This document shows, one piece after another, positions 1,879 to 19,199 of a DNA stretch of 32,000 bases. The DNA lies in NCBI GenBank assembly GCA_963843975.1, contig CAWJMG010000003.1, positions 1,470,001 to 1,502,000 on the forward strand, written 5' to 3'. The notes below the pieces were generated by a model. The model searched no databases. It had not been told where the DNA came from and saw only the letters and a list, made by a program, of their open reading frames with translations. Made by a program: the position numbers and the translations under genes. The DNA is from an uncultured Actinomycetes bacterium (GTDB taxonomy: Bacteria > Actinomycetota > Actinomycetes > S36-B12 > CAIYMF01). The stretch's first letter is position 1; each line of letters begins with the position of its first letter.

Positions 1879-3244
1879 TCAGTGGTTGTGACCCTCGTGG
1901 TCGTCGTGGTCGTGACCCTCGTGGTCGTGACCCTCGTGGTCGTGGCCCTCGTGGCTGTCGAACTCGGGGACGCCGGCAGTCGCGAGCTCGTTGAGCGCCG
2001 AGAGGTCGATGACCGTGCCCTCGGTGTCGACGATGCGCGCGTGCTCGAGGACGTGGGCGAGCGCCTTGCTGCGACGGACCTCGGAGACCGCGGCGGGCAC
2101 CTGGCCGGCGTTGACGAGCTCCTGGGCGAACTGGTCGGGCGTCATGCCGTAGCGCGGCGCCTGCTGCACGAGCCAGGACGACAGCTCGGCCTCGGAGACG
2201 GCCAGCTCCTCGGTCTCGGCGATCTTGTCGAGCACGAGCTGGCTCTTGAGGCCGTCGCGCGTCTGCGTCTCGACCTCGGCGCGGTGGTCGTCGTCGCCGT
2301 GGCCGTCGGAGAAGTGGTCCTCGACCTGCTGGGCGATGGCGCTCTCGGGCACCGGCACCTCGGTCGCGGCGAGGAGGGCCTCGGCGACCTTCTCGCGGGC
2401 GGCGTAGCCCTGCTCGAGCAGCTTGACGCGGGCGAGGCGGTCGGACAGATCCGCACGCAGCTCCGAGATCGTGTCGAACTCGCTGGCCAGCTGGGCGAAG
2501 TCGTCGTCGGCGGCGGGGAGCTCGCGCTCGCGCACGGTCGAGACCTTCACCGTGACGGTGATGTCCTTGTCGGCGTACTCGCCGCCCTCGGGCGTGAAGG
2601 TGAAGGTGCGCTCGTCGCCTGCGGCAGCGCCCTCGACGGCCTCGTCGAAGCCGGGGAGCATGCCGCCGGTGCCGACCTCGTACGACAGCGCGGTGGCGTC
2701 GAGGTCGTCGACCGAGGTGCCCTCGAAGTCGCCGGACAGGTCGAACAGGATCACGTCGCCGGAGGCGGCGGCGCGCTCGACGGTCTTGAGCGAGCCGAAG
2801 CGGCTGCGCAGGCTGTCGAGCTGGGTGTCGACGTCCTCGTCGGTGACGACGGCCGGGTCGACGACGACCTCGATGGTGTCGTACGCCGGAAGGTCGAACG
2901 CGGGGACGACGTCCATCTCGGCCGTGTACGACAGCGGCGCCGCGTCCTCGAACGTCTGCACGTCGACCTCGGGGCGGCCGAGCGAGCTTGATGTCGTTCT
3001 CGCGCAGTGCGGCGTCGAGGCTCTCGTTGATGGCGTCGTTGACCGCCTCGTCGAGGACCGCGGCACGACCGACGCGCTGGTCGATCACGCGGTTGGGCAC
3101 CTTGCCCTTGCGGAAGCCGGGCACCGAGATCTGCGCGGCGATGCGCTTGTACGCGGCGTCGAGCGAGGGCTTGAGCTCCTCGAACGGCACCTCGACGGTG
3201 AGCTTCACCCGGGTGGGCGACAGGGTCTCGACGGCGCTCTTCAC
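1879..3244 (-). CDS. tig: Trigger factor (frame break near 2981-2988 as sequenced; His/Asp-rich C-terminal tail)
   Basis: N-terminus [50 protein letters not shown] is in the frame of ORF 1739..3244. The rest ([13 protein letters not shown]...[12 protein letters not shown]...) is in the frame of ORF 1879..3066. Span is 1366 nt = 455 codons + 1. Confidence 0.9.
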
Positions 3245-3369
3245 GTGGATCGGTGCTCCTGGGTCGGTACGTGCCGGATCGCGTGCTGCGGTCCGCGGTG
3301 GGTGGTGGTCCGAGTGCAGTGCTGGATCGTGCGGGTCGGGCTCGCCGTGCGGGCCGGGGCCCTGGCTGG

Positions 3370-3442
3370 TCGGGGCGGGGAGACTCGAACTCCCGATCTC
3401 CTGCCCCCAAAGCAGGCGCGCTAGCCACTACGCTACGCCCCG
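3370..3442 (-). tRNA. tRNA-Pro (anticodon UGG); CCA also encoded at 3367-3369
   Basis: A 73-nt cloverleaf folds by hand: acceptor CGGGGCG/CGCCCCG, D stem GCGT/GCGC, anticodon stem CCTGC/GCAGG with loop TT-TGG-GG, T arm GGGAG-TTCGAGT-CTCCC, discriminator A. Confidence 0.92.
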
Positions 3443-3576: not shown

Positions 3577-3647
3577 GCGGGTGTAGCTCAATGGCAGAGC
3601 CCCAGCCTTCCAAGCTGGCCATGCCGGTTCGATCCCGGTCACCCGCT
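3577..3647 (+). tRNA. tRNA-Gly (anticodon UCC)
   Basis: A 71-nt cloverleaf folds by hand: acceptor GCGGGTG/CACCCGC, D stem GCTC/GAGC, anticodon stem CCAGC/GCTGG with loop CT-TCC-AA, T arm GCCGG-TTCGATC-CCGGT, discriminator T. CCA is not encoded. Confidence 0.92.
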
Positions 3648-3652
3648 CCGCT

Positions 3653-4004: not shown

Positions 4005-4601
4005 GTGACCGAGCGGCCCGCACCATCGCGACCCCGGCTCGTCGTCGCGTACGGCACTCACCCCGCCCACGACCTCCTCCGCGCCGAGGCCGCCCGCTTC
4101 CACCACGTGCCCCCCGACCGCATCGTCATCGCCCACGCGTGCCCCCGCTGCGGCAGCGACGAGCACGGCCGCCCGATCCTGCTGCCGACGGCCGCCCTCC
4201 GGAGCCCGGCCCACGTCAGCCTCGCCCGTGCCGGCGACCTGTCCGTGGTCGCCCTCACCGACGCCGGCCCCGTCGGCATCGACCTCGAGCCCGACGGCGC
4301 CGCCGACTTCCCCGGCTTCGACGACGTCGCCCGCCACGCCGACGAACGCGGCACCGACGCGACCGTCTCCTGGGTCCGCACCGAGGCGCTGCTCAAGGCG
4401 CACGGCCTCGGGCTCGTCGTCGACCCGCGAGACGTCAGCATCAACGCCGACGGATCCATCACCTGGGACTCGCCGCACGCACCGCCCGGGCCTGCCTGGC
4501 TGCGCGACCTCGCCGTGCCCGGCCACGTCGCGTCGGTCGTCGTCCTCGCCGATCACGACGTCGCGGACCTGTCCGTCACCGTCGGACCCCCGACGTACTG
4601 A
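4005..4601 (+). CDS. 4'-phosphopantetheinyl transferase, Sfp type (start uncertain)
   Basis: Motifs CPRCGSDEHGRP, VGIDLEP (G-x-D-x-E) and WVRTEALLKAHGLG (W-x-x-x-E-A-x-x-K). GTG 4005 is the only in-frame start downstream of the repeat region. There is no convincing SD. Confidence 0.75.
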   Translation: MTERPAPSRPRLVVAYGTHPAHDLLRAEAARFHHVPPDRIVIAHACPRCGSDEHGRPILLPTAALRSPAHVSLARAGDLSVVALTDAGPVGIDLEPDGAADFPGFDDVARHADERGTDATVSWVRTEALLKAHGLGLVVDPRDVSINADGSITWDSPHAPPGPAWLRDLAVPGHVASVVVLADHDVADLSVTVGPPTY

Positions 4602-4617: not shown

Positions 4618-5919
4618 TCAGCGCGGGGCGACCGGCAAGGCAGGAAGCGGTCGCGCACGCAGCCAGGGATCGAAGAGGTCGGTCAGCGGTTCGCCGACCA
4701 GCTCGGCGGCGAGCGCCTCGAACATCGCGGTCGTGACCGAGCGGTAGCGGTTGCGATCGATCCAGGTGCGGAGCAGGAAGAAGAACCGGTCGTCGCCGAT
4801 CCTCAGACGCAACGCGTGCAGCAGCAGCGCACCCCTCTTGTAGACGCGGTCGTCGAACATGAGGTCGGGCCCCGGGTCCACGAGCAGCAGGTCTTGCGGC
4901 TTGGCGTCCAGCTTCGTCCAGTGGTCGCGGGCACGCGCGTCGGCGGAACGCCCGCCCGACTCCTCGGACCACAGCCACTCGCAGTAGCAGGCGAATCCCT
5001 CGTGCAGCCAGATGTCGCGCCACGACGACACCGTCACCGCGTTGCCGAACCACTGGTGCGACAGCTCGTGCGCAACGAGGCGCACATTGTCCCAGTCGGA
5101 GGTCAGGAAGTTCGACCCGAAGGTCGACATCCCTTGCGCCTCAAGGGGGATGTCCAGCTCGTCCTCAGTGATGACCACCGTGTAGCCGGCGAACGGGTAG
5201 GGACCGAAGAGCCGCCCGAAGAAGTCGAGCATCTCCGGCTGCCGGCCGAACGCCTGGTCGTACCGCGCGAGCTGCGCCTGCGGGAGCACCGCGGTCATCG
5301 GCACCTCGGAGGCAGCCACAGGGCGAACGACGTACCGCCCGATCTGCACGGTGGCGAGATACGTGGCCATCGGCTCGTGCTGCTCGTAGACCCACCGCGT
5401 GGTGCTGGCCGACCGCCACTGGCTGGTGCAGATGCCGTTGGCCACCACGTGGTAGGCGTGGGGGGCCGTGAGCTCGATGCGGTACGTCGCCTTGTCGTCC
5501 GGGCGGTCGTTGCAGGGGAACCACGACGGCGCGCCGTTGGTCTGGCCGGCGACGAGCACGCCGTCGGCGAGCTCCTCCCAGCCGCACTCGTCGTCGCCGT
5601 CGGGCACGGGCCGCGGCCGTCCGTCGTAGGTCACGACCACACGGAACCCTTCGGCCGCCTTGATCGGGCGCCGCGGCGCCACGACCAGGTGGTCGGCGCG
5701 GGCGACGTACTTCGCCGCTGCACCGTCGACCGTCACCTTCGTGACCCGGAGCCCGGAGAGGTCGAGCCTCAGCTGCTTCAGGTCGATGACCGCCTCCGCC
5801 GTCAGCGCCGCCTTGCCGCGGAGCTGGTTGCTCTCGACGTCGTACGACAGCGTGAGGTCGTAGTGCGACACGGCGTACGAACGGTCCCCGCGGTGCGGGA
5901 AGTACTCCGGCGCCTTCAC
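4618..5919 (-). CDS. M1-family zinc metallopeptidase lacking the GxMEN exopeptidase motif
   Basis: HELSHQWFGNAVTVSSWRDIWLHEGFA (HExxH-x18-E). GTG start at 5919 with GGAGGAG SD; GTGA overlap with the upstream synthetase stop. The track ORF 4618..6690 is over-extended. Confidence 0.85.
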   Translation of the reverse strand: MKAPEYFPHRGDRSYAVSHYDLTLSYDVESNQLRGKAALTAEAVIDLKQLRLDLSGLRVTKVTVDGAAAKYVARADHLVVAPRRPIKAAEGFRVVVTYDGRPRPVPDGDDECGWEELADGVLVAGQTNGAPSWFPCNDRPDDKATYRIELTAPHAYHVVANGICTSQWRSASTTRWVYEQHEPMATYLATVQIGRYVVRPVAASEVPMTAVLPQAQLARYDQAFGRQPEMLDFFGRLFGPYPFAGYTVVITEDELDIPLEAQGMSTFGSNFLTSDWDNVRLVAHELSHQWFGNAVTVSSWRDIWLHEGFACYCEWLWSEESGGRSADARARDHWTKLDAKPQDLLLVDPGPDLMFDDRVYKRGALLLHALRLRIGDDRFFFLLRTWIDRNRYRSVTTAMFEALAAELVGEPLTDLFDPWLRARPLPALPVAPR

Positions 5920-8900
5920 TCGTCTCCTCCGCCGTCGACATGTTGCCACGGACCGATCGGGTTGCCGATCCATCGTGTCTTGTCGGGGACGAACTCCCCG
6001 CGCATCACGAGCGACACCGGCCCGACCGTCGCGTGCCGCCCGAGCGTCGCCGCCGGGAGGATGACGCTGTTGGGGCCGAGGGTCGATCCCGTCCGCAGCG
6101 TGACGGTGTCCATGCTGAGCACCCGGTCGTGGAACAGGTGGGTCTGGACCACGCAGCCCTGGTTGACGGTGGCTCCTGCCTGCAGGTGGATGAGGTCGGC
6201 CTCGGGCAGCCAGTACGTCTCGCACCAGACGCCGCGGCCGATCTTGGCACCGAGGGAGCGCAGCCACAGGTTGAGGACCGGCGTGCCCGTCGAGGGCCGC
6301 GCGAACCACGGCGCGGCCACTGCCTCGACGAACGTGTCCGCCAGCTCGTTGCGCCACACGAACGAGCTCCACAGCGGGTGGTCGCCGACACGGAGCCGCC
6401 CGACGAGCGCCCACTTGGCGAGCGTCGTCACGACCGCGGCCACGGTCGCCGCCGCGATGACGACGGGTCCGCTCAGCAGCACCGCCACCCACCAGCCGTA
6501 CGCCGACGCGAGCGCGATCTGCGCGACGACGACACCGAGCCCGACCGCGACTCCGACCATGACGGGGACGAGCCGGCAGAGCTCGACCAGCGCCCGCGCC
6601 ACGACCAAGCGGGTCGGCGGGTCGTACGTGCGGCTCCGGTCCGCCTTCTGCTCCACGCGGCGCAGCTTGGTCGGCGGGCTGCCGAGCCACGACGTGCCGG
6701 CCTTGGCCTTCGTACGGCGCGGCGCCGCGGACAGCACCGCGACGAGCCCCCGCTTGGGCACCTTGCGACCAGGAGCGGCCATGCCGGAGTTGCCCACGAA
6801 CGCATGCTTCCCGATCTCGACGTGCTCAACCCGCAGCCAGCCGCCGCCGAGCTCGTAGCCGCCGAGCAGCGTGTCGTCGGCAAGGAAGGCACCTTCCCGC
6901 ACCGTCGTCAGCTTGGGGATGAGCAGGACGGTCGAGGCCTCGACGCTCGGACCGATGTTCGCGCCGAGCCCGCGCAGCCAGGCCGGCGTGAGCGAGCTGG
7001 AGTAGAGCGGGAAGAGCCAGGTGCGTGCCTCGTCGAGGACGCGGAGGGTCGCCCACGCCTGCCACGCGCGAACTCCGTGCACCGGATGCGCCCCGGGAAC
7101 GAGCCCGATCCCGAGGAGCCGCACGACGAGCCAGATCAGCAGGGCCAGCAGAAGCATGCCGACGACGGTCGCCAGCGGCAGCCAGGCCAGGGCCCTCAGC
7201 GCTGCAGCCGCCACCGAGCCGGCGTCCTTCAGCTGCTGCGCCGCAGGGGCGACCGCCGCCACGGCGGCGATCCCTGGCAGCGAGGCGATGAGCACGGCGA
7301 TCGCCGTGTAGCCGACGACCCACACCGGCCGGTTGAGCGGCCGCTCGGCCCACGGCCCGCGCGCAGTCTTGCGCGGCCGTGCCGGTGCGCCAGCCCAGAG
7401 CTCGCCGGCGGGGACGTCGCCGAAGACGGCTGAGCCGGGCGCGATCTCCGCGCCGGCGCCGATCACCGCGCCCGGCGCGAGCGTGCTGCGCGCCCCGATG
7501 CGCGCGTCGGGGCCGATACCGACGGCGCCGACGCGCAGCAGGTCGCCGTCGAGCCAGTGCCCTGACAGGTCGACCTCGGGCTCGACCGAGCACCCGTCGC
7601 CGAGGACGAGGTGCCCGGTGACCGGCGGCACCGAGTGGAGGTCGACGTGGCGACCGACCGTGGCGCCGAGCAGCCGCGCGTAGAGCCGCATCAGCGATGC
7701 ACCCGCGAGGTTGGCGGCGCCGAGCTCGTCGGCCAGCCGCTCCGCGAGCCACACGCGCAGGTGCACCCAACCGCCGCGCGGGTAGGTGCCCGGGCCGACG
7801 CCGACGAGGATCGCCCGCGCCCCCACCGCGGTGAGCAGCATGCGACCGGGGGCCGACACCAGCAGGAGCCAGGCGACGACGACCACCGCCCAAGGCGCGC
7901 TCGGCAGCCAGGCGACCCCGAACCACTGGGCAGCCGCCGTCGACCCGAGCGCAGCCCAGGTGAGCCATCGCAGCCCGGTGATCGTGCGGAGCGGGATGGT
8001 CAGCAGCACCTGTGCCACCTGGGACCCGCGCGATACGGGGTGAACGGTGCGGTCGACGTACGCCGCCGGTGTCGCGAGCTCGTCGAGCGCGACCGCGAGG
8101 TCGCCGATCCGGGGGTGGTCGTAGACCTCGGCGACGGTGACCTCGGGGTACGTCGCCCGCAGCCGCGACACCAGCTGCGCCGCAGCCAGGCTCCCGCCGC
8201 CCAGGTCGAAGAAGTCGTCCTCGGCGCTCGTGACCGTGGCCCCGAGGATGTCGGCCCAGAGGTCCTGCAGCTGCCCGGCCGTGCCCTCGAGCCGCGTGGA
8301 CTCCGCGATCTCGACGGTGCCGAGCGGCCAGGGCAGGGCGTCGCGGTCGATCTTGCCGGAGGTGCGGGTGGGCAGCGTGTCGACCTGTGCCAGACGAGGG
8401 ACGAGGGCCGCGGGCATCGTTGCCCGAAGGGTCGCGACCGCAGCCGCCGGGTCGAACTCGTCGGTGGTGGCGACGTAGCCGACGAGCAGCGCGTTGCCCG
8501 ACCCGGTGCGCCGAACCGCCGCCGCAGCGCCGGTCACGCCGGGGAGCGCCAGCAGGGCGCTGTCGATCTCGCCGAGCTCGATGCGCCGGCCGCCGACCTT
8601 GACCTGGTCGTCGGCGCGTCCGAGGAAGAGCAGGCCCTCCTCCTCGTAGCGGACGAGATCACCGCTGCGGTAGGCGCGGTCCCAGCCCAGCGTGGGCATG
8701 GGGGCGTACTTCTCCGCGTCCTTCACCGGGTCGAGGTACCGCGCGAGGCCGACGCCGCCGATGATCGAGCTCGCCGGTGCCGCCGGGCTCCACCTGGACG
8801 CCCGACTCGTCGACCACGGCGAGGTCCCAGCCGTCGAGAGGCAGCCCGATCCGCACCGGTGGCTCGCCCGTCAGCCGGGCACCGCAGGCCACGACCGTGG

Positions 8901-9772
8901 CCTCGGTGGGCCCGTAGGTGTTCCAGACCTCGCGGTCCTCCTCGACCAGCCGTGCCGCGAGCTCCGGCGGGCACGCCTCGCCACCGAGGATGAGCAGGCG
9001 TACGGCGGCGAGAGCATCCGCGGGCCACAGCGCGACGAGAGTCGGCACGGTCGACACGACCGTGATGTCGTTGGCGACCAGCCACGGCCCGAGCTCCATG
9101 CCGCTGCGCACGAGCGAGCGCGGCGCCGGCACGAGGCAGGCGCCGTACGCCCACGCGAGCCACATCTCCTCGCACGACGCGTCGAAGGCGACCGACAGCC
9201 CCGCCATCACGCGGTCGCCCGGGCCGAGCGGCTCGTCCTGCAGGAAGAGCCGCGACTCGGCGTCGACGAACGCCGCCGCGCTCCGGTGCGACACGGCCAC
9301 GCCCTTCGGCGCACCGGTCGAGCCGGACGTGAAGATCACCCAGGCGTCGTCGGTCGTCGTCGGGAGGGTGCCGTCGGCCGCCGCGGGCTTCGGCTTCCTG
9401 ACCGTGCAGCTCGAGGTCGTCGGTGAGCACCGCGGCCACGTCCGTCTCGCCGAACACCGTCCGAGCGCGCTCGTCGGGGTCGTCGGCGTCGACCGGCACG
9501 TACGCCGCCCCCGCGACCAGCGTGCCGGCGATGGCGATGTAGAGGTCGGTCGTGCCCGAGCGGATCCGGACCCCGACCTTGTCGCCCGGCCCCACCCCAG
9601 CTGCGTGCAGCTCCTCGGCGACCTCCTCGGCCGCGTCCAGGAACTCCTCGTAGGTGAGAACCTGGGCGCCGTTGTCGAGCGCGGGCTCGTCCGCGTGGTC
9701 CGCCGCCGTGCGTCGCAGCACGTCGACGAGGGTCCGCGGCGCGGCCGCCAGCGGACCGCGCAGCAGAGTCAT
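5916..9772 (-). CDS. Pls-type single-module NRPS-like synthetase: A-PCP followed by three repeats of 2 TM segments plus a beta-helix-like domain (two frame breaks as sequenced, ~8767 and ~9395-9415)
   Basis: A-domain motifs LTYEEF, VAGAAYVPVD, FTSGSTGAPKG, FDAS, NTYGPTE, GELIIGG, YRSGDL, GRADDQVKVGGRRIELGEI, SGKIDR. PCP motif FFDLGGGSL. No C or TE motifs. Six hydrophobic segments and three hexapeptide-like regions. The pieces lie in ORFs 8723..10093, 8659..9339 and 5916..8726. Span is 3857 nt = 1285 codons + 2. Confidence 0.85.
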
Positions 9773-9854: not shown

Positions 9855-11238
9855 GTGCGTCTCTCCGAAACCCCGGCTGCGGCCGCCGCCATCGCCGCTG
9901 CGCTGCTGCTCGCGGCCTGCTCGACGCCCTCCTCGAACGACTCGACAGGCTCGAGCGCACCGGTCACCAGCACGCCGACGGTCGGCCCGTCGACCAGCGC
10001 CGGTGCGTCCGCTTCGGCCTCCCCCTCGTCACCTCGACCGACGCGCTCCGGCGCCGACGCGGCGCTGCTCGCAGCGGCACGCAACGGCGACACCGCCGGC
10101 GTCCGTCAAGCCCTGGCCGACGGTGCGGACGTCGAGGCCGCCGACGACCTCGGCCGCACGGCCCTGGTGCAGGCGGCGTACGGCAACCACCTCGAGATCG
10201 CCCGGATCCTGGTCCGTGCCGACGCCGACGTGAACCACCTGGACGCGAGCACCCAGAGCCCGTACCTCATCGCGACGAGCGAGGTCGGCGACGACCCGCG
10301 GCTGCTCGATCTCCTGCTCTCGCACGGTGCGAACCTGCGCGCGAAGGACAGCTACAACGGCACGGGGCTGATCCGTGCGGCAGATCGTGGATTCCCGAGG
10401 ATCGTCGATCGCCTGCTCGAGGCCGGGATCGAGATCGACCACGTCAACCGGTTGGGGTGGACCGCCCTGCACGAGGCGGTAGTCCTCGGCGACGGGTCCG
10501 AGCGGTACCAGCGGGTGGTGCGCCTGCTCGTCGACTCCGGCGCGGACCCGCTGCTGCCGACGCAGAGCGACGGAGTCCGCCCTCGCGCGCACGCTCAGGC
10601 ACGCGGCTTCACGAGGATCGACGCCCTCGTGAGGTCGGCCGCTGAAGGTCTCACGCCCGATCGACGTCTGCTTCGGCACGCACGCGCAGGCAGCGTCGTC
10701 GCCGCGGAGGCAGCCCTGGCCGATGGTGCCGAGGCTCGAGGTCCGCGACGCGCGCGGGCGCACGCCTCTGCTGCTCGCCGCCACGGAGGACCGGGTGCCG
10801 ATGGCGAGGATGCTGGTCGCCCGGGGGGCCGATGTGAACGCCCTGGACGGCCGCCATGACACGCCGTTCCTCGTCACGGGCGTGACCGGCAGCGTGGCCA
10901 TGCTGAAGGCGCTGCTCCCCGGCCGACCCGACACGACGATCCGCAACCGGTACGGCGGGGTCGCAGTGATCCCGGCGTCCGAGCGCGGCCACGCGGAGTA
11001 CGTGGCGGCTGTCCTCGCCCTGACCGACATCGACGTGAACCACGTGAACGACCTCGGCTGGACGGCGCTGCTCGAGGCCGTGATCCTCGGCGACGGCGGA
11101 CCGCGGCACCAGTCCGTCGTCCGCGCGCTGCTGGCCGCAGGCGCAGACCGCTCGATCGCGGACCGCGACGGCGTCACGCCGTTGCAGCACGCCGTACGCA
11201 GGGGGCAGACCGCCGTGGCGGCTCTGATCGACGGCTGA
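9855..11238 (+). CDS. Ankyrin-repeat lipoprotein, two homologous halves (frame break ~10733 as sequenced)
   Basis: Signal and lipobox VRLSETPAAAAAIAAALLLAAC. ANK repeats include GRTALVQAAYGNHLEIARILVRADADVN, LGWTALHEAVVLG, GRTPLLLAATEDRVPMARMLVARGADVN and GVTPLQHAVRRGQ. The parts lie in ORFs 9654..10859 and 10723..11238. Span is 1384 nt = 461 codons + 1. Confidence 0.8.
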
Positions 11239-11383
11239 CCTCTGCCGTCACGAAACCCCAGAGGCACCATGCACCCCACCCGTGACGCAGTTCACGCGCT
11301 GTTTACACAGCGTGGTCGCGTTTCACCCGTTCGGGCCGACTTTCCCCCGTGGACCCTCACGCTCCGCGCATGTTGCCCGGTAC

Positions 11384-11492
11384 GGTGACCCTCATTGCGC
11401 TCGGGGTCGTGGGGCGTCGCGCGGTCGCTGGGGCGGCGACCGGTCGACGTCGGCGTCGGGTGCCGCGGTGGTCGGCTCAGTGGGGGCCGACC
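11384..11492 (+). promoter_or_regulatory. Conserved structured leader of secreted paralog A (two hairpins; the second is ggtcggc-tcagtgggg-gccgacc at 11470-11492)
   Basis: Shares tcggggtcgtg and cggctcagtgggggccg blocks with the leader of paralog B. The stem shows a compensatory T:A to C:G change. Confidence 0.5.
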
Positions 11493-11516
11493 CCGGGGAC
11501 AAAGGGGAATCTCTCG

Positions 11517-12788
11517 ATGAAGACACGTGCGTGGATCGCCAGCTTGACTGTCGCCACCGTCGCGGCGGCGCTCAGCGTCGTCACGGTGGCCGTGCCTGCG
11601 GCCGACGCCGCGCCCCCGGTCGAGGTGCCTGTCGGCACCCTCAGCCTCTCGCTCGGTGCCATCGACCAGTTCACGTTCGACAAGGGCACCGCCGACGCCA
11701 CCGACGACATCGTGCAGCCGATCGGGGCTGTGGTCGGCAAGTGCACGCTCACCCCGACCAGCGGCCCGCTGGCCGCGTTCAGCGCCACCGGCGGCGTGCC
11801 CGGCTTCTACCGCGACTCCATCGGCGTCGCCGGGCCGACCGGCAGCAACGCCTACGGCCGCGAGTGCGCGCGCGTGAGCAAGACGCCCGCCGAGACCCTG
11901 ACGCTGTCGCTGCCCCGCACCTCGGGCGGCGCGTACGACACGATCTTCGGCCAGGCCTACGCCAACGCAGCCAGCCTCGAGGTCGAGGTCAAGGGCGACG
12001 CCGTCGTCCAGGCGACCACCTCGCTGGGCGGCACCCCGACCGGCACCTTCTACCTGCGCGACGGCGACGAGCACTACCGCTCGACTCCGCCGGCTCTGCC
12101 CAACACCTCGACCTGCTCCGCGAACTCCCCCGGCTACGGCGACGACGACGGCGAGCGCGACAACTGCACGTGGAAGATCAGCGGCGCCAAGTTCGACAGC
12201 ATCACGTTCACGGTCCTGCGCGGCGCGTTCTCGCTCGAGGGCGGCAGCGACTGCCGTTCCACCGCGGTCCGCACGAGCACGTTCTCGCTCGTGGTCGAGG
12301 CCGACGGCCTGCTCAACTGCGGCGCCACCACCCCTGGCGTGACCAGCGACGGCTCTATCTCCGACGTCGCCATCACCCGCCTCGAGAACGGACTGGCGAC
12401 GGACGGCACCTGCGTCGGCATCCCGTTCACCCTCCGCGCTGACGGCGGCTCGACCACCTTCCACAAGCCGGCCACCACGCAGGGAAGCGCGCAGTTCACG
12501 CTGTCGCTGACTCGGACCATCCCGGCGTCGTCCGGCATCGACCCGCTGACAGTCGACTGGGAGGACGGCACCACGGTGTACGACCTCCCCTGGTGCAAGC
12601 CGGGCCTGAAGACGGGCGCGACGTTCAACTACGCGGCGCTCACCCCCGCCGATGACGCCTCGAGCGCCACGGCCGGCATCCAGTACGCCTGCCAGTACGA
12701 CCTCGACCCGACCTTCTCGGACGACGGCACGCTGACGATCGTCGACTCGGTCTACTTCACCGGCGACATCAAGTTCACGACCCGCTAG
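11517..12788 (+). CDS. Secreted Cys-rich protein of unknown function, paralog A
   Basis: ATG preceded by aaagggga SD. Signal peptide MKTRAWIASLTVATVAAALSVVTVAVPAADA. Colinear with 13053..14339 and shares the C-terminal GDIKFTTR. I recognise no known domain. Confidence 0.8.
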   Translation: MKTRAWIASLTVATVAAALSVVTVAVPAADAAPPVEVPVGTLSLSLGAIDQFTFDKGTADATDDIVQPIGAVVGKCTLTPTSGPLAAFSATGGVPGFYRDSIGVAGPTGSNAYGRECARVSKTPAETLTLSLPRTSGGAYDTIFGQAYANAASLEVEVKGDAVVQATTSLGGTPTGTFYLRDGDEHYRSTPPALPNTSTCSANSPGYGDDDGERDNCTWKISGAKFDSITFTVLRGAFSLEGGSDCRSTAVRTSTFSLVVEADGLLNCGATTPGVTSDGSISDVAITRLENGLATDGTCVGIPFTLRADGGSTTFHKPATTQGSAQFTLSLTRTIPASSGIDPLTVDWEDGTTVYDLPWCKPGLKTGATFNYAALTPADDASSATAGIQYACQYDLDPTFSDDGTLTIVDSVYFTGDIKFTTR

Positions 12789-12806
12789 ACCCGCACGACC
12801 GCACGG

Positions 12807-12837
12807 CGCGGGAGGCAGCGATCCGCTGCCTCCCGCG
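12807..12837 (+). terminator. Hairpin after paralog A (cgcgggaggcagcg-atc-cgctgcctcccgcg)
   Basis: 14-bp perfect inverted repeat 19 nt after the TAG stop. Confidence 0.65.
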
Positions 12838-12937
12838 TCGGCATGCCCGGGGCGCCACGCGCAGGCGGAACCCTGAGATCCCTGTAACGCCAACGACTGT
12901 CGCCGCGTTTGGTCAACGCAGGGCACAACGCTGCGAC

Positions 12938-13025
12938 GTCACGACCCCGGGCCCCCCACTGTTCGGGGTCGTGACGCGCGGCGAGGCTGCCCGGCGCATC
13001 GAGGGCCGGCTCAGTGGGGGCCGGC
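12938..13025 (+). promoter_or_regulatory. Conserved structured leader of secreted paralog B (hairpin 12938-12975, 12-bp stem; hairpin gccggc-tcagtgggg-gccggc at 13005-13025)
   Basis: Same block order, loop sequence and distance to SD/ATG as upstream of paralog A. Confidence 0.5.
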
Positions 13026-13052
13026 ACGCCGGGACACAAGGGGAACCGCTTC

Positions 13053-14339
13053 ATGAAGACTCGTGCCTGGCTCGCAGGCCTCGCCGGCACCACCCTCATC
13101 GCCACCGTCGGGGTGGTGGCCTCGACGAACGTCGTCGCCTCCGCGGACCCGGTCGCGCCCATCGCCGTCGGCACGGTGGAGATCGCCACCGGCCCGACCG
13201 CCTCGATGGTCTTCAGGAACACCGCCGGCGTGGTCAAGGCCACGCAGGCGATCAGCACGGCCAGCGACAAGTGCAGCCTCACGCCCGTCACCGGGCCGGT
13301 CGGCGCCTGGTCCGCCACCAACGGCGTGCCCAGCTACTACCAGACCGGCATCGGCGTCTCCGGCATCAAGGCCACGGGCACCGCCTGCGGTCGCATCGAC
13401 CCGTCGCCGGACGAGACCCTGACCCTGAAGCTCAACGGATCCGCGCTCCCTGCCCAGCTCAGCTCGCCGCTCGCCCGGTGGGCATCGCTCGACGTCGAGT
13501 TCAAGGGCGGCGCGACGGTGGTCGCGACCCTGAAGCGTGGCGGTGCCGCGGTCGACACCTACACGATCGTCACCGGGACTTCGGCACCGGCCACGCCCCC
13601 GGCCAACACGCAGTACTGCCTCAACGGCTCGGACTCGGGTCCGGACTCGTTCAGCGGCGACAACTGCCAGTGGAGGATCGGCTCGCCGACATCCTTCACC
13701 GCACCTTTCGACGAGATCACCCTCGACGTCACCGTCGGATCGGGAACCTCGCTCAAGGGCGGCGGCGACTGGGCGGTGCCGGCGAACCACCGGAGCGTCT
13801 TCGGTCTGTACGCCCAGCCCGACGGCGTCCTCGACTGCAACGCGGGCGCGCAGAACGTGTCGCCGGACAGCGCCGAGTGGAGCATCTCCGTCAACCGTTT
13901 GACCAACGGCGACGTCGACGAGGTGTGCACGCCGGTGCCCTTCAGCCTGCGCAAGGACGGCTCATCGGCGACCTTCCGCAAGCCCCTCGACAGCCAGTAC
14001 TCGGCCCAGTTCGTCATCGACGTCGTCAAGAAGCAGGTGGCCGCGACCAACCCGATCGCCGTGATCCAGGTGAACTGGGAGGACGGCGCCGGCGCCAAGG
14101 ACGTCGGCTGGTGCAAGGACTCGTACTTCGTCGGCACCGACCTCTCCGGCAAGCCGGTGATCGACTACGGCGTGCTGACGGTCGTCGAGGCCGATGCCAG
14201 CAACGGCAGCGCCGCCAGCCTTCCCGGCTTCCAGTTCGCCTGCCTCTACAAGCAGTCCGCCGACCTGCAGGCGGACGGCAGCCTGATCACGACGGACGGC
14301 CTGTACGTCACGGGCGACATCAAGTTCACGACCCGCTAG
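13053..14339 (+). CDS. Secreted Cys-rich protein of unknown function, paralog B
   Basis: ATG preceded by caagggga SD. Signal peptide MKTRAWLAGLAGTTLIATVGVVASTNVVASA. Conserved Cys positions and C-terminal GDIKFTTR are shared with paralog A. Confidence 0.8.
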   Translation: MKTRAWLAGLAGTTLIATVGVVASTNVVASADPVAPIAVGTVEIATGPTASMVFRNTAGVVKATQAISTASDKCSLTPVTGPVGAWSATNGVPSYYQTGIGVSGIKATGTACGRIDPSPDETLTLKLNGSALPAQLSSPLARWASLDVEFKGGATVVATLKRGGAAVDTYTIVTGTSAPATPPANTQYCLNGSDSGPDSFSGDNCQWRIGSPTSFTAPFDEITLDVTVGSGTSLKGGGDWAVPANHRSVFGLYAQPDGVLDCNAGAQNVSPDSAEWSISVNRLTNGDVDEVCTPVPFSLRKDGSSATFRKPLDSQYSAQFVIDVVKKQVAATNPIAVIQVNWEDGAGAKDVGWCKDSYFVGTDLSGKPVIDYGVLTVVEADASNGSAASLPGFQFACLYKQSADLQADGSLITTDGLYVTGDIKFTTR

Positions 14340-14354
14340 ACCCAGCACTCCCGC

Positions 14355-14395
14355 CGAGAGGGCGGAGCGCGGCGGCAGCCGCCTCCGCCCTCTCG
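14355..14395. terminator. Long hairpin between convergent paralog B and the regulator (cgagagggcggag ... ctccgccctctcg with an inner gcggc/gccgc stem)
   Basis: 13-bp outer stem plus a nested 5-bp stem, read directly. It sits between two converging stops (14339 and 14429). Confidence 0.65.
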
Positions 14396-14428: not shown

Positions 14429-17400
14429 TCAGGTGGCGAGGACGCCGAGGCCGGCCAGCACGGCGCCGGCCTCCTCGGACTTCGCTCGCGCGGCGGCGGT
14501 CTCGCCGGTGAGGGCGAGCACGTCGGCCTGCAGGCCCAGCAGCTGGGCCCGCTCGAACGGCAGTGAGTACTGGTCGGCCAGTGCGACACCGGCATCGGCC
14601 TCGACGAGCGCCTCGTCGTGGCGGCCGAGCGCGGTGAGGGCGCGGGCACGCTCGAGGTTGAGGCGCGGCTGCAGCGCGACGCCCTCGCCGGTGGCAGAGC
14701 CGGCGTTGGACTCCAGCAGCACCAGCGCGTCCTCGGCGCGGCCCTGGCGCGTCAGCGCCTCCACCCGCACGAGCGCCGACTCCAGCGCGCTCACCTTCTG
14801 GCTGAGCGCGACCAGCTCGAGCTCGGCGTCCTGCGCCAGCGCCTCGGCGGCCTCGAGCTCGCCGCGGCCGAGCAGCACTCGGGCGCGGTGCACCTCTCCG
14901 TACGCCGCGAAGGCGGGGACTCCGGAGACGCGCAGGACCCGGACGGCGTCGGTGAGCACCGTCTCCGCCTCGTCGAAGCGCCGCTGGCTCGCGAGCACCT
15001 CGCCGAGGCTGAGCGCCACGATCGCGGCGCCGACGACGTCGCCGACCTCCTGGGCTGCGACGCGGCCGGCGGCGAACGACGCGACCGCCTCGTCCCATCT
15101 GCCGGCGTAGTAGGCGAAGCCGCCGAGGTTCCCGTGGGCGGCGAAGGCGCGCAGGCTGTTGCCGCGCGCGTTCATGACCGTGAGCGCCTCGCGGGTGCGG
15201 TCGCCGACCGACGTGTCGCCGAGCTGGAACGCGGCGACGTCCATCGTGAGCAGCGCCTGCTCGAGCGCCTCGAACTCGCCCGTCTCGCGCGCCTCGTCGA
15301 GCAGCGTCTGCGCGATGTCGAGCGCGTCCTGCAGCCGCTCCTGCTCGAGCCGGATGCCCGCGCGCACCGACCGGAGGCGCACCCGGGTGCGCCGTGCGTC
15401 GAGCGAGGTCTCGGCCGAGAGCATCCGCTCGGCCTTGCTGAGCCTCGGCGAGAGCCGGCCCGAACGCACCCGACCGCTGCCGCACCTGGGCGCGCTGACG
15501 CAGCAGAGTGGCGCTCATGAGCGGGTCCTCCGGTGAGAGGCGCAGCGAGAGTCGGAACGCGTCGAGCGACTGCTCGTACATGCCTGCGAGGTCGCGCACC
15601 TCGCCGAGCCGGCGCCACAGGTCGCGCCTGTCGACGTCGGACACCTCGGCCACGCGCCGACCCGACTCCAGCGCTCGCTCGTAGAGCGCCGCGGCGTCGG
15701 CGTTGGCGTAGGCGCGTGCCGCGCGGTCGCCCGCCATCCGTGAGTAGCGCCAGGTGGCGGCGTCGTCGCCACCGCGCCAGAAGTGCAGCGACAGCGTGTC
15801 GGCGTCGGCCTCGAGATCCTCCGACAGCTTCTCGACCGCACGGCCCGCGGCCGCGTGAAGCTTGGCCCGCAGCCGGTAGGCGAGCCCCTCGTACGCCGCG
15901 TCGCGGATCATGCCGTTGCGGAACTGCAGGCGCCCGCTGCCGTCGGGCTCGAGGAAGCTCTCGAGGCGCGAGAGCGTCGCGGCGTCGACGAGGAGATCGT
16001 CGCTGCGGATGGTCTCGTTCAGCACCTCGGTGCGGAACGAGCGGCCGAGCACCGAGGCGTAGCGCAGGATGCGGCGCGAGTGCGCGTCGAGCGCGTCGAT
16101 CTGCGCGTCGAGCGCGGCGTGGAGGTTCTCGGGCACCGAGTCGAGCGAGCCGACCTCGGCGAACACGCGCGCGATCTCCTCGACGAACAGCGGGTTTCCG
16201 CCCGCACGCCGTACGACCTCGTCGATCTCGTGCGGGCGCATCGGTGTGGCTGCCGTCGCCGCGATCACGAGGCGGCGGATGACGTCGTCAGGCAGCGGGC
16301 CCAGCTCGACGCGCTCCCCCGCCGGGTCGAAGCCGCCCTCGTCGCGCCGGGTGACGAGCATGGCCCATGGACGACGAGGCGCCTCCGCGGCGAAGCGCGC
16401 GAGGACGTGGGCCGACGCCGCATCCGCCCAGTGGCCCTCCTCGACACGGAGGAGCAGCGGCCCGGGGAAGGTCGTCTCGACGAGGCGCAGGATGAGGTCG
16501 GCGATGCGGTCGGGGCGGAACCGCGGCTCGATCGCTCGTACCTCGGGGGACTCGGGCATCGACACGGTGACCACGTCGCCCAGCAGCGAGGCGAACGCCA
16601 GCAGCTCGGGCGCGAGACGTCGCACCCCGGCGCGCACGGCGTCGGCCATCTCGTCGTGCGTGCCGCGCTCGACGCGGAGCAGGGCACGCACCGGGTCGCG
16701 CAGGACGCGGTACGGCGCGGTGGCGCCGTACGGCTCCGCGCGCACGGTGATGGTGCGCACGTCGAACCCGGCGAGCGCCTCGGCGACGACGCGGCTCTTG
16801 CCGGTGCCGTTGCCCCCGCTCACCACGACCACGCCGCCGTCGCCCATGAGCATCCGGCCGACGTTCGACCGGATGGCGTCGAGCTCGACCTCGCGGCCGA
16901 GCAGCGGCAACGAGGTGCCCGCGCCCGTGCCGCGCGTGCCCGTCTCCTCCGCGACGGCGAGCACCGGCACCGGGACGGTCTTGCCCTTCATGGGGAACGG
17001 GCCGGCCGGGGTCGTGGCGAAGAGGGTGCGCGAGCGCTCGAGGACGGTGGGGTGGGCGAACAGCACGCCGTGCGGGGCCTTGCCCATGATGCGCGCCGCT
17101 GTGTTGGTGGTGTCGCCCATCGCGGAGTACGCCGCCCGCTCGACGGCGCCGACCTCGGCGGCGAACACGTGCCCGCGGTTGACGCCGATCTGCAGCGGCA
17201 GCGGCGTGCCGACGTCGAGGACGCGGCGCATCGCCCGCAGCATGCGGCCTTCGTCGTCCTCGCTGGAGTAGGGGACGCCGGAGCCCATGAAGAGCTTGCC
17301 GCCGTCGCTGTCGAGGTCGGTCGCGAGCAAAGTGACGCCCTCGTCGTTCATGGCCTGCATGAACACCGACACGGTGCTGTCGAGGGCCTCCGCCACGGCT

Positions 17401-18191
17401 TGCGGGCCAGGGCCCGACAGCAGTGCGTCGGTGCCGCTGAAGCGCGCGAACGCGATCGTCGCGATCTTGTGCTCGGGGTCGGGCACCCGCTCGGCGAGGT
17501 AGTCGCCCAACGCGTTCGGGAAGAGCGCACGCAGCCTGTCGCCCTCGACGTCGGGCACCGGCGGCGGTTCGGTGAGCGGCGGGTCGACCGAGCGCCAGCG
17601 CAGCAGCAGCGCGCCGTCCTCCGCGCGCGGCCGCGTCGAGCCTCGCGGCAGCCGGGCAGCGGTGGCGGCCGTGACGACGATCTCGCCGGCGTTCGCGAGC
17701 TTCTCGGCGTCGGCCGTCGCCGTGGCCGCAGGACCGAGGATGAGCAGCTCGCGGGTCGGTGCACCGACGAGGAAGAAGTCGACCGGTCCGGAGTGGATGC
17801 CGACCGACATCCGCAGCTTGAGCCGCCCGACCGAGGTCGGGATGGCGGAGGCGTCGCGCAGGGCGATGCGCATGTCGACGGCGGCGGCGCAGGCCCGCAC
17901 CGCGTGGTCGTCGCCGCGGAACGTGAACAGCAGGGCGTCGCCGCCGAACTTCAGGAGCTCGCCGCCGCGTGCCCCGGCCATGCCGAGCATGCCGCCGAAG
18001 ACGCGGTTGAGGGTCTCGATCAGCTCCTCGGCGCCGATGCGGCCGCGGCGGGCGAGGCGCTCGGTCAGGGCCGTGAAGCCGGAGATGTCGGCGAAGACGA
18101 GGGTGGCGTCGATGCCCTGCCAGGAGGAGCCGGGGGCTGCGTCGTCCCACTCGAGGGCGACCCGGGGCACGTGGCGTCGGAGGTCGGTCAC
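14429..18191 (-). CDS. Large signalling protein: two tandem class III cyclase-homology domains, a P-loop NTPase and TPR-like repeats (frame break ~15400-15480 as sequenced)
   Basis: CHD1: VFADISGFT, KFGGDALL. CHD2: MGDTTNTAARI. P-loop VVVSGGNGTGKSR. The Ala/Leu-rich helical-repeat C-terminus continues in ORF 14429..15469. GTG start with GGAGGAGGG SD. Span is 3763 nt = 1254 codons + 1. No LuxR-type HTH seen at the C-terminus. Confidence 0.8.
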
Positions 18192-18292: not shown

Positions 18293-19199
18293 TCAGGTCG
18301 TGGACCGTCGTGCCCTCGGGCGGCGCTGACCAGGGAGCCGCTGGCACCCGGGGCACCAGTAGAGACGACGACCCTGGTGGTCCTGCGCCGAGACAGGGAG
18401 GCCGCACCGGACGCAGGGCCGCCCTTCTCGCCTGTAGACGTAGACGCCGGTGCTGCGGCGCAGCCTGCGGATCTGCGGGGTGTCCTCGCCGCCGTCGAGG
18501 CTCGGGGTCGTCCGAGTTGGGCCGGTCGAGGTCGAGCGCGGCGAGCGCCTCTGTGTGGGCCGGGTCGACCGTGACGATGCGACCCCGGCGTACGCCGTCC
18601 TTCATCAGCAGCACGAGGTCTGCCCACATGGCGTCGAAGACCGGGCCGCGCAGCAGCCGGCCCTCGAGGAACGGCGACACCTGGTGCCTGAAGAGGAGCT
18701 CGGCGCGGTAGATGTTGCCGACGCCCGAGAGCACCGACTGGTCCATGAGCAGCGTGCCGACCGGCGCGCGGCTCGACAGGATCCGTGCCTTCGCGCGGTC
18801 GGGTTCGGCGTCGGCGCGCAGCGGGTCGGGGCCGAGCCGGGCCACGATCGCGTCGCGGCCGTGGGTGCCCACGAGGTCGCACGCCGTCGGGCCGCGCAGG
18901 TCGGCGTACGACGCCGAGCCCTCGATCCGCCAGCGCACGGCACCGCGCGGTTCTGGCGCAGGGCCCTTGGCCGTGATCATCGTGCCGTACAGACCGAGGT
19001 GGACGTGGACGACGTCGTCGCCCTCGAACGCGACGAACAGGTGCTTGCCGTACGCCTCGGCCTGCTCGAGCACCCGGCCGGTCAGGATCTGCGCGCCGGA
19101 GTCGAAGCGCCCCTGCGGGCTGCTCGACGCGACGACCTGGCCGGCGAACGTGCGGTGCAGGCCGCGGGCGAGGCGGTGCAGGCTGTGTCCCTCGGGCAC
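18293..19199 (-). CDS. nei: Fpg/Nei-family DNA glycosylase (endonuclease VIII-like; frame break ~18500 as sequenced)
   Basis: Starts V-PEGHSLHRLARGL (catalytic Pro2 context) after a GAGGAG SD. H2TH region LMDQSVLSGVGNIYRAELLF. The zinc finger VYVYRREGRPCVRCGLPVSAQDHQGRRLYWCPGCQ is found only in a third frame ending at TGA 18293-18295. Span is 907 nt = 302 codons + 1. Confidence 0.85.

Follow-up and report, generated by a model that had tools for sequence, protein, structure and literature searches.

This report concerns a tandem pair of genes encoding the secreted proteins P0001 and P0002, which lie in a 32,000-nucleotide (nt) stretch of DNA from an uncultured Actinomycetes bacterium (assembly GCA_963843975.1, contig CAWJMG010000003.1, positions 1,470,001 to 1,502,000; referred to here as the window). 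The two proteins belong to a widespread family without a name, and a gene of this family was found directly beside, and convergent with, a gene for a large cyclase-STAND-TPR protein in every surveyed locus where the arrangement could be judged. We consider it somewhat better than an even bet that these genes encode an exported, diversifying binding protein that forms a two-gene module with a cyclase of the soluble adenylyl cyclase (sAC) type and is coupled to cyclic AMP (cAMP) signaling. No known family or described module fits this arrangement.

Secreted paralogs of an unnamed family

Paralog 1 (P0001, 423 amino acids [aa]) is encoded at positions 11517 to 12788 and paralog 2 (P0002, 428 aa) at 13053 to 14339, both on the forward strand and with the stop codon included, and both open reading frames (ORFs) have a stop-free translation. 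The first-pass annotation of this DNA, which was made from the sequence alone, had described them as a tandem pair of diverged but colinear secreted paralogs, and a BLASTP comparison bears this description out (171/443 identities [39%], E value of 2e-78, colinear end to end). As had also been pointed out, both N termini start with MKTRAW. By inspection, next come a hydrophobic core and a cleavage site of the A-x-A type (ADA/AP in P0001 and ASA/DP in P0002), the pattern of a Sec-type signal peptide; in P0001, the basic MKTR n-region precedes 20 hydrophobic residues and ADA/AP. The signal peptides are encoded at approximately 11517 to 11609 and 13053 to 13148, respectively, and a signal peptide is kept in 16/16 aligned family members as well as in the representatives that were inspected from a 149-sequence set. 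Inspection of the P0001 and P0002 signal peptides revealed neither a lipobox cysteine nor a twin-arginine motif. The two proteins also lack the features of sortase or lipoprotein anchoring, namely, an LPXTG motif, a hydrophobic C-terminal tail, or a lipobox (their first 70 residues are free of cysteine), so the earlier statement that neither LPXTG nor a lipobox is visible stands. The mature proteins are acidic: P0001 has a mass of ~40 kDa, an isoelectric point (pI) of 4.3, and 9 cysteines, and P0002 has a mass of ~41 kDa, a pI of 4.6, and 8 cysteines. The median mature pI of the family is 4.3.

Eight cysteines align between the paralogs (C76, C117, C200, C217, C268, C299, C360, and C392 in P0001 numbering), in keeping with the "about eight" first proposed, and they are 91 to 100% conserved across 149 family representatives. 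The accompanying label "Cys-rich" was nevertheless overstated, since 8 to 9 cysteines in ~395 mature residues amount to 2%. The ninth cysteine of P0001, C246 (window positions 12252 to 12254), is also found in its closest relatives (P0003, P0004, and P0006), and most of the family carries at this position the tryptophan of a GGGDWG motif; in the P0001 subclade, C246 could be a free thiol or part of an altered disulfide. Near the C terminus, G416 and D417 are conserved in 93% and 98% of the 149 representatives, respectively. Most invariant positions of the family are glycine, cysteine, or hydrophobic residues, and a set of acidic or polar positions (E126, D155, N216, D245, K317, Q326, D380, and D417) is conserved in 83 to 98% of the representatives.

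Both proteins end in the identical peptide GDIKFTTR, followed by a TAG stop codon, and the 31 nt at positions 12762 to 12792 on the forward strand, which comprise the GDIKFTTR codons, TAG, and ACCC, are identical to those at 14313 to 14343, exactly as first annotated. This identity sits within a 40-nt stretch of 95% identity. Because the same 27 nt recur nearly unchanged across 8 gene copies from 5 genomes, the identity is mostly what an invariant peptide and extreme codon bias would be expected to produce; codon bias had originally been credited with part of it, and together with the invariant peptide it accounts for most. With so few lineages, a constraint on the 31-nt DNA itself is inseparable from codon bias and shared descent.

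The family is large. Eighteen relatives came out of a word-based search, and a profile search run against 1.84 billion cluster representatives returned 605 at an E value of ≤1e-3 and 146 at ≤1e-30, nearly all of the 605 being 400 to 500 aa long and matching in one stretch. (A narrower alignment was used for the search for related loci, which yielded only 4 named loci.) Pfam and NCBIfam gave nothing above threshold for P0001 and P0002, and searches of Pfam, NCBIfam, PHROG, PADLOC, and PDB sequences were likewise without a match above threshold for P0001, P0002, and 26 relatives. Ten representatives spread across the family had no Pfam match and are publicly annotated as "hypothetical protein." A profile search of all PDB sequences with the family gave no match, no PADLOC family matched the secreted proteins, and the single PHROG match (E value of 0.019) was to a family of unknown function. 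Among more specific candidates, no hydrolase profile matched the family in the Pfam and NCBIfam scans, and Pfam scans that covered 28 members, at E values up to 0.1 to 10, showed no carbohydrate-binding module (CBM) profile. The CUB domain (PF00431) was considered and rejected: P0001 scored 13.7 bits against a cutoff of 21.4 and was the only one of 16 members to show the match. CUB is also a disulfide-bonded extracellular beta-sandwich, and residues 198 to 251 of P0001 (C...NCTWKI...ITFTV...FSLEG) align to CUB positions 8 to 59, a likeness that is either due to chance or very remote. The earlier impressions that the pair has no recognizable domain and may define a new family are therefore supported by empty library searches and by 605 unnamed representatives, and the profile and fold searches that the first-pass annotation had proposed did not assign the proteins to any characterized family.

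An AlphaFold2 model of P0001 that was built from a 16-row alignment is all-beta (predicted local distance difference test [pLDDT] score of 81, predicted template modeling [pTM] score of 0.78). When the whole model was compared with the PDB using Foldseek, the only high-probability matches were to jelly rolls, namely, CBM6, CBM29, and the APC10-like PP25 (probabilities of 0.9 to 0.99, template modeling [TM] scores to the target of 0.37 to 0.50, and root mean square deviations of 6 to 7 Å over ~140 to 190 aligned columns), and no whole-chain relative was found in the PDB. A fold search of BFVD returned nothing usable (TM scores of ≤0.38 overall and ≤0.27 for large alignments). The C-terminal 164 residues were also modeled alone (pLDDT score of 78), and Foldseek found no PDB match for this domain (best E value of 0.07, TM scores of ≤0.29). 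Since the C-terminal domain alone gives no match, the jelly-roll likeness belongs to the N-terminal ~220 residues, and in the predicted model this part loosely and weakly resembles carbohydrate-binding jelly rolls. The family is like CBM6, CBM29, and the galactose-binding-domain-like jelly rolls (PDB 1uy2, 1o8p, 1w8z, and 1tvg) in being a secreted beta-sandwich; it differs from CBM6 and CBM29 in that its N-terminal module comprises ~220 residues, has two predicted disulfides, and is fused to a second domain without a PDB match. Pairing of neighboring cysteines probably produces four disulfides in the whole protein (76-117, 200-217, 268-299, and 360-392).

Pairing with a convergent cyclase-STAND-TPR gene

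The gene that converges on paralog 2, here called CycReg, occupies positions 14429 to 18191 on the reverse strand, and Pfam identifies tandem class III cyclase domains, an AAA_16 STAND NTPase, and MalT-like TPR repeats in its product. The protein has 1252 aa in relatives; the window copy is split by a frame break near position 15470, and a tblastn search with the protein of Longivirga aurantiaca, a species in the same genus-level group as the window, aligned it as two pieces in different frames that are 85 to 93% identical. Its best sequence match in the PDB is the human soluble adenylyl cyclase ADCY10 (E value of 2e-15), which has the same combination of tandem class III cyclase domains, a P-loop STAND NTPase, and TPR repeats. 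Together with full-length ADCY10, the mycobacterial cyclase-ATPase proteins Rv0386, Rv1358, and Rv2488c, which have a similar domain order, are the closest known counterparts of the partner. The Pfam scan found no LuxR-type helix-turn-helix domain in CycReg. In the literature searched on cyclase-STAND proteins, no exported partner is described for ADCY10 or the Rv cyclase type.

The 4.19-Mb source assembly contains only two copies of the secreted family. Family carriers make up 30/201 sampled genomes of the order and 6/400 genomes in a sample of the phylum, three of the latter matches being marginal. We surveyed ~20 kb around 34 loci, of which 2 end at a contig edge and 32 could be tested. In 32/32 testable loci, a secreted gene lies directly beside and convergent with the gene for a cyclase homolog of ~1250 aa, with gaps of 12 to 824 nt except at one locus, where the cyclase gene is fragmented and the gap is larger. 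The pairing is kept in three genomes of other classes, in which the cyclase is 36 to 39% identical, the neighborhood lacks tig, fpg, rpiB, and pepN, and the flanks are otherwise unrelated. No third conserved gene was detected across the 34 loci, the next family occurring in no more than 10 of them, and no immunity gene, cyclic nucleotide (cNMP)-activated effector, or toxin domain was conserved near the pair.

Viewed from the cyclase side, a strong homolog is present in 44/201 genomes of the order, including 29 of the 30 family carriers; in the thirtieth carrier, the cyclase gene copy is fragmented. The 15 genomes that have the cyclase without a reported family member comprise one with a divergent member that had escaped the genome search (G181), ten that encode a different secreted protein, designated "alt," and four in which the locus reaches a contig edge and cannot be judged. 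The first-pass annotation had proposed phyletic profiling of the pair against the cyclase regulator and against a nearby synthetase gene; the family co-occurs with the former and not with the latter.

The "alt" proteins carry signal peptides and are encoded in the same convergent slot beside cyclase-STAND homologs in 10 genomes. The genes lie at L064:1518-3353, L066:5259-7043 and 11480-13693, L069:5837-7069, L070:4916-6802, L071:4404-6986, L072:3794-6778, L073:2583-6347, and L074:36-2012, and frameshifted copies are present in L065 and L068. Their products are 403 to 1236 aa long, mutually homologous (E values down to 1e-137), and devoid of Pfam domains except for an RCC1 propeller insert in L071; compared with the P0001 family, they are longer and more variable in length. 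Neither blastp nor hmmsearch detected homology between the two families. A remote relationship was considered using hhalign and was not shown, the probability being 3 to 4% with the 16-row and 149-row profiles and the alignment covering the last ~35 residues. The "alt" C terminus (...C-x15-25-L..(L/Y)F.(E/D)DPK...) is similar in form to that of the P0001 family (...YACxY...VYFTGDIKFTTR).

Two further observations concern individual loci of these two groups. In L066 (G166:C6:137000-156000), the two-gene module of an "alt" gene and a cyclase-STAND gene is duplicated in tandem, with cyclases that share 54% and 60% identity with the Longivirga protein. In L067, the gene just upstream of the divergent G181 family member (L067:1273-3132) appears by eye to be a putative fusion of a glutaminase with a cyclic-nucleotide-binding domain that shows an FGELAL...RSTRIVA-type motif; should this reading hold, a cAMP receptor would be encoded next to the module.

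In phylogenetic trees, P0001 groups with the first copies of loci L001 and L003 (the copy 1 clade) and P0002 with the second copies of these loci and the single Longivirga gene (the copy 2 clade). The duplication is therefore older than these species, and copies were lost differentially afterward. The gene order is not fixed within the genus: in genome G051 (L035:1923-4954), a copy-2-like gene comes first and a copy-1-like gene stands beside the cyclase, an arrangement opposite to that of the window, with moderate tree support (89/83 and 95/93). The cyclase tree agrees with the secreted-protein tree in its main clades and in the taxonomically odd placements of G130 and G053, which would fit joint inheritance or joint transfer of the two genes.

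The two partners evolve at very different rates. The rate of nonsynonymous substitution (dN) of the secreted genes is 0.16 to 0.67, and its ratio to the synonymous rate (dN/dS) is 0.36 to 0.97, compared with a dN of 0.02 to 0.09 and a dN/dS mostly of 0.06 to 0.21 for CycReg, rpiB, fpg, tig, and the ankyrin gene in the same genome pairs (one rpiB pair has a dN/dS of 0.40). The cyclase-STAND protein itself is under strong purifying selection (dN/dS of 0.06 to 0.11). Between the window and Longivirga, the cyclase protein is 93% identical and paralog 2 only 42%. This roughly 10-fold excess of dN, with intact reading frames and a kept cysteine scaffold, is robust. The secreted partner is thus the fastest-evolving gene amid conserved housekeeping genes and is sometimes swapped for an unrelated secreted protein. 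Fast evolution combined with replacement is typical of molecules at a cell's interface with other organisms.

Competing readings of the module

In the model that we favor, P0001 and P0002 are old tandem paralogs, Sec-exported, acidic, and ~40 kDa in size, whose predicted all-beta mature form consists of an N-terminal part of ~220 residues that loosely resembles a jelly roll and a C-terminal beta-sandwich of ~165 residues that ends in a conserved Y-x-x-G-D-x-K hairpin. The four probable disulfides formed by the eight near-invariant cysteines would brace this structure, and the surface is diversifying quickly while the scaffold is kept. Since the proteins lack both an anchor and a catalytic signature, they are most probably binding proteins of a lectin- or adhesin-like kind that are either released or held at the wall. 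We infer binding rather than catalysis because the invariant positions are mainly glycine, cysteine, and hydrophobic residues, no hydrolase signature is present, and the N-terminal part is jelly-roll-like. Inside the cell, the cyclase-STAND-TPR protein would act as a cytoplasmic sensor that turns an intracellular cue into cAMP, which in turn would govern the production or use of the exported protein; this regulatory coupling through cAMP is suggested by the strict adjacency of the two genes. Among the classes that the first-pass annotation had offered, the ligand-binding or surface class is still the most plausible, the evidence for it being the weak jelly-roll likeness and the fast evolution, whereas nothing positive emerged for the toxin-like reading.

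Several observations weigh against this model. The two genes, being convergent, cannot share a transcript, which means that their coupling is read from position only, and the 32/32 count is inflated by related genomes in which synteny persists by descent. The test for a canonical CRP site was negative, the single GTGA-N6-TCAC site in the window not being kept in orthologs. The resemblance to jelly rolls is weak, with TM scores below 0.5, identities of 6 to 17%, and no CBM profile match, and the conserved E126, D155, N216, D245, K317, Q326, D380, and D417 leave room for an enzyme. With respect to rates, dS is distorted by extreme codon bias, and the dS values of the secreted genes exceed those of their neighbors; part of the apparent rate may reflect allele replacement instead of positive selection in place.

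One alternative is that the secreted proteins are stand-alone extracellular proteins, for example, in nutrient scavenging or wall binding, whose adjacency to the cyclase gene is inherited synteny or the sharing of a terminator and has no functional meaning. In its favor, the genes converge, a separate terminator-like hairpin follows each of them, conservation of a canonical upstream CRP site is lacking, and the sampled loci come mostly from one order. We nevertheless regard this explanation as unlikely: the pairing outlasts the change of all other flanking genes, even in other classes where the cyclases are 36 to 39% identical, the odd tree placements are common to both genes, and another secreted protein fills the slot where the family is missing. 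We are similarly doubtful that the proteins are secreted enzymes, such as a new type of glycan- or peptide-degrading hydrolase. The eight acidic or polar positions that are 83 to 98% conserved in the 149 representatives speak for this reading, and many of the Foldseek matches lie inside glycoside hydrolases; however, the matched regions are accessory beta-sandwich domains (TM scores of <0.3 to whole chains), hydrolase profiles do not match, the invariant positions are mostly glycine, cysteine, and hydrophobic residues, and a gene-wide dN/dS of 0.4 to 1 would be unusual for an enzyme.

A conflict or defense module, in which the STAND-cyclase would detect an invader and the hypervariable secreted protein would serve as effector, decoy, or bacteriocin-like weapon, would account for the fast evolution, for a secreted cassette that is swapped between two unrelated families, and for the patchy distribution (30/201 genomes of the order) with its signs of transfer. 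PADLOC also reports weak matches of the partner's cyclase domain to Pycsar cyclases. These matches reflect generic class III cyclase similarity, however, and the secreted proteins have no PADLOC match at all; a dN/dS of 0.06 to 0.11 for the STAND protein is unlike that of arms-race sensors, and the surroundings of the pair contain no conserved immunity gene, cNMP-activated effector, or toxin domain. We therefore think a role in conflict improbable, more so than either of the preceding two explanations.

A broader version of the model that we favor is that bacterial sAC-like cyclases, with their tandem cyclase domains, STAND NTPase, and TPR repeats, each serve a fast-evolving exported protein as its dedicated partner and report through cAMP. 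We put this forward tentatively, as a conjecture that is probably wrong. The TPR sensor would monitor its cognate preprotein, perhaps through the C-terminal Y-x-x-(G/E/D)-D-x-K hairpin, which is common to the two otherwise unrelated cargo families, or it would gate production. If true, this would reveal a previously unknown secretion-coupled cAMP signaling module and provide a first handle on the STAND-TPR input of sAC-type cyclases. Even the simpler proposition that the pairing is functional would define a family of ~600 sequence clusters that is now without a name, domain, or structure and would tie it to the cyclase-STAND-TPR proteins, which range from mycobacteria to full-length mammalian soluble adenylyl cyclase. 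Longivirga aurantiaca (strain CGMCC 4.7317), a cultured isolate with a single family copy, an intact cyclase gene, and a locus for a Pls-type polycation synthetase, makes the question open to direct testing.

Flanking signals and the neighboring polycation locus

A conserved promoter- or operator-like block lies upstream of paralog 1 at positions 11278 to 11345 on the forward strand (GTGACGCAGTTCAC...TGTTTACACAGCGTG...TTCACCCGTTCGGG). The orthologous copy 1 genes of L001, L003, and L033 are preceded by the same block, as is the single Longivirga copy in L004. The one GTGA-N6-TCAC match in the window (positions 11282 to 11295; chance expectation of 0.54) falls inside this block, and the block has GTG-N9-CAC spacing in orthologs in place of GTGA-N6-TCAC. 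A canonical cAMP-CRP site upstream of the paralogs is accordingly not supported, the lone site being near chance level and unconserved.

Each paralog is also preceded by a leader block of the form GGC-TCAGTGGGG-GCC together with a AAGGGGAA ribosome-binding site. The element of paralog 1 (GGTCGGC-TCAGTGGGG-GCCGACC, positions 11470 to 11492 on the forward strand) lies ~25 nt 5' of its AAGGGGAA site, and that of paralog 2 (GGCCGGC-TCAGTGGGG-GCCGGC, positions 13004 to 13025 on the forward strand) is a direct repeat of it. Across the leader regions of the window (11440 to 11516 and 12975 to 13052) and their equivalents in L001, L003, L004, and L033, the arrangement (C/G/T)GGC-(T/C)CAGTGGGG-G(C/T)CG followed by AAGGGGAAC hardly varies among 8 gene copies that represent 5 genomes of the genus. 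Beyond the genus, no family member was found to be preceded by the exact motif, and the leader has no match in Rfam. A role as a structured RNA is undecided, given that covariation is too sparse to make the call: there is one covarying pair, and the paralog 1 element has an unremarkable folding stability (z-score of -1.6).

Downstream of paralog 1, a terminator-like hairpin with 17-nt arms and a 3-nt loop spans positions 12804 to 12840 on the forward strand (-43.3 kcal/mol, z-score of -5.8). A second strong hairpin, at 14355 to 14395 (-61.9 kcal/mol, z-score of -5.7), lies in the 89-nt gap between the convergent genes and is probably a bidirectional terminator. Both lack T-tails and were found by folding, and equivalent GC-rich hairpins follow the stop codon in orthologous loci. 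A hairpin behind each paralog would be compatible with separate transcripts without proving them. A scan for consensus promoters and terminators gave no matches, which is expected for a genome of ~72% GC; the G+C content of the window is likewise ~72%.

The first-pass annotation had also raised, as speculation, a link between the pair and the adjacent polycation locus. The phyletic pattern largely refutes it, the Pls-type synthetase gene adjoining the pair in only 3 of the 34 loci (the window, L003, and L004). The same three loci are the only ones in which genes for a short M1 peptidase and an ankyrin lipoprotein flank the pair, and L001, from the same genus, has both paralogs and the cyclase gene without the synthetase, M1 peptidase, or ankyrin genes. 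The Pls-type genes are a separate, locally acquired cassette. The secreted proteins might still serve this locus, for instance, by binding or carrying the secreted polycation as acidic proteins, as their pI of 4.3 to 4.6 and the adjacency in three loci would allow, but the absence of the synthetase from the other 31 loci, including L001, and an acidity that is family-wide and independent of the synthetase make this very improbable. The two-gene module with the cyclase makes the family more interesting than the earlier reading could show, on grounds other than the polycation locus.

Neighboring genes in this assembly carry many single-base frame breaks, and five genes of the window are affected: tig (1960 to 3244), the Pls-type synthetase gene (5919 to 9772, two breaks), the ankyrin gene (10041 to 11235), the cyclase-STAND gene (14438 to 18191), and fpg (18296 to 19199). 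Each aligns to its Longivirga ortholog as two to three pieces in different frames, and the secreted-protein genes are intact. The breaks are probably assembly indel errors, because the related assembly behind L003 is similarly fragmented. Between tig and the accessory genes lie a tRNA-Pro gene (3367 to 3442, reverse strand) and a tRNA-Gly gene (3577 to 3649, forward strand). Finally, the Longivirga ortholog of the ORF at 4026 to 4589 (forward strand) matches 4'-phosphopantetheinyl transferase below threshold (23.5 versus 25 bits); a putative transferase of this kind would fit the adjacent synthetase.

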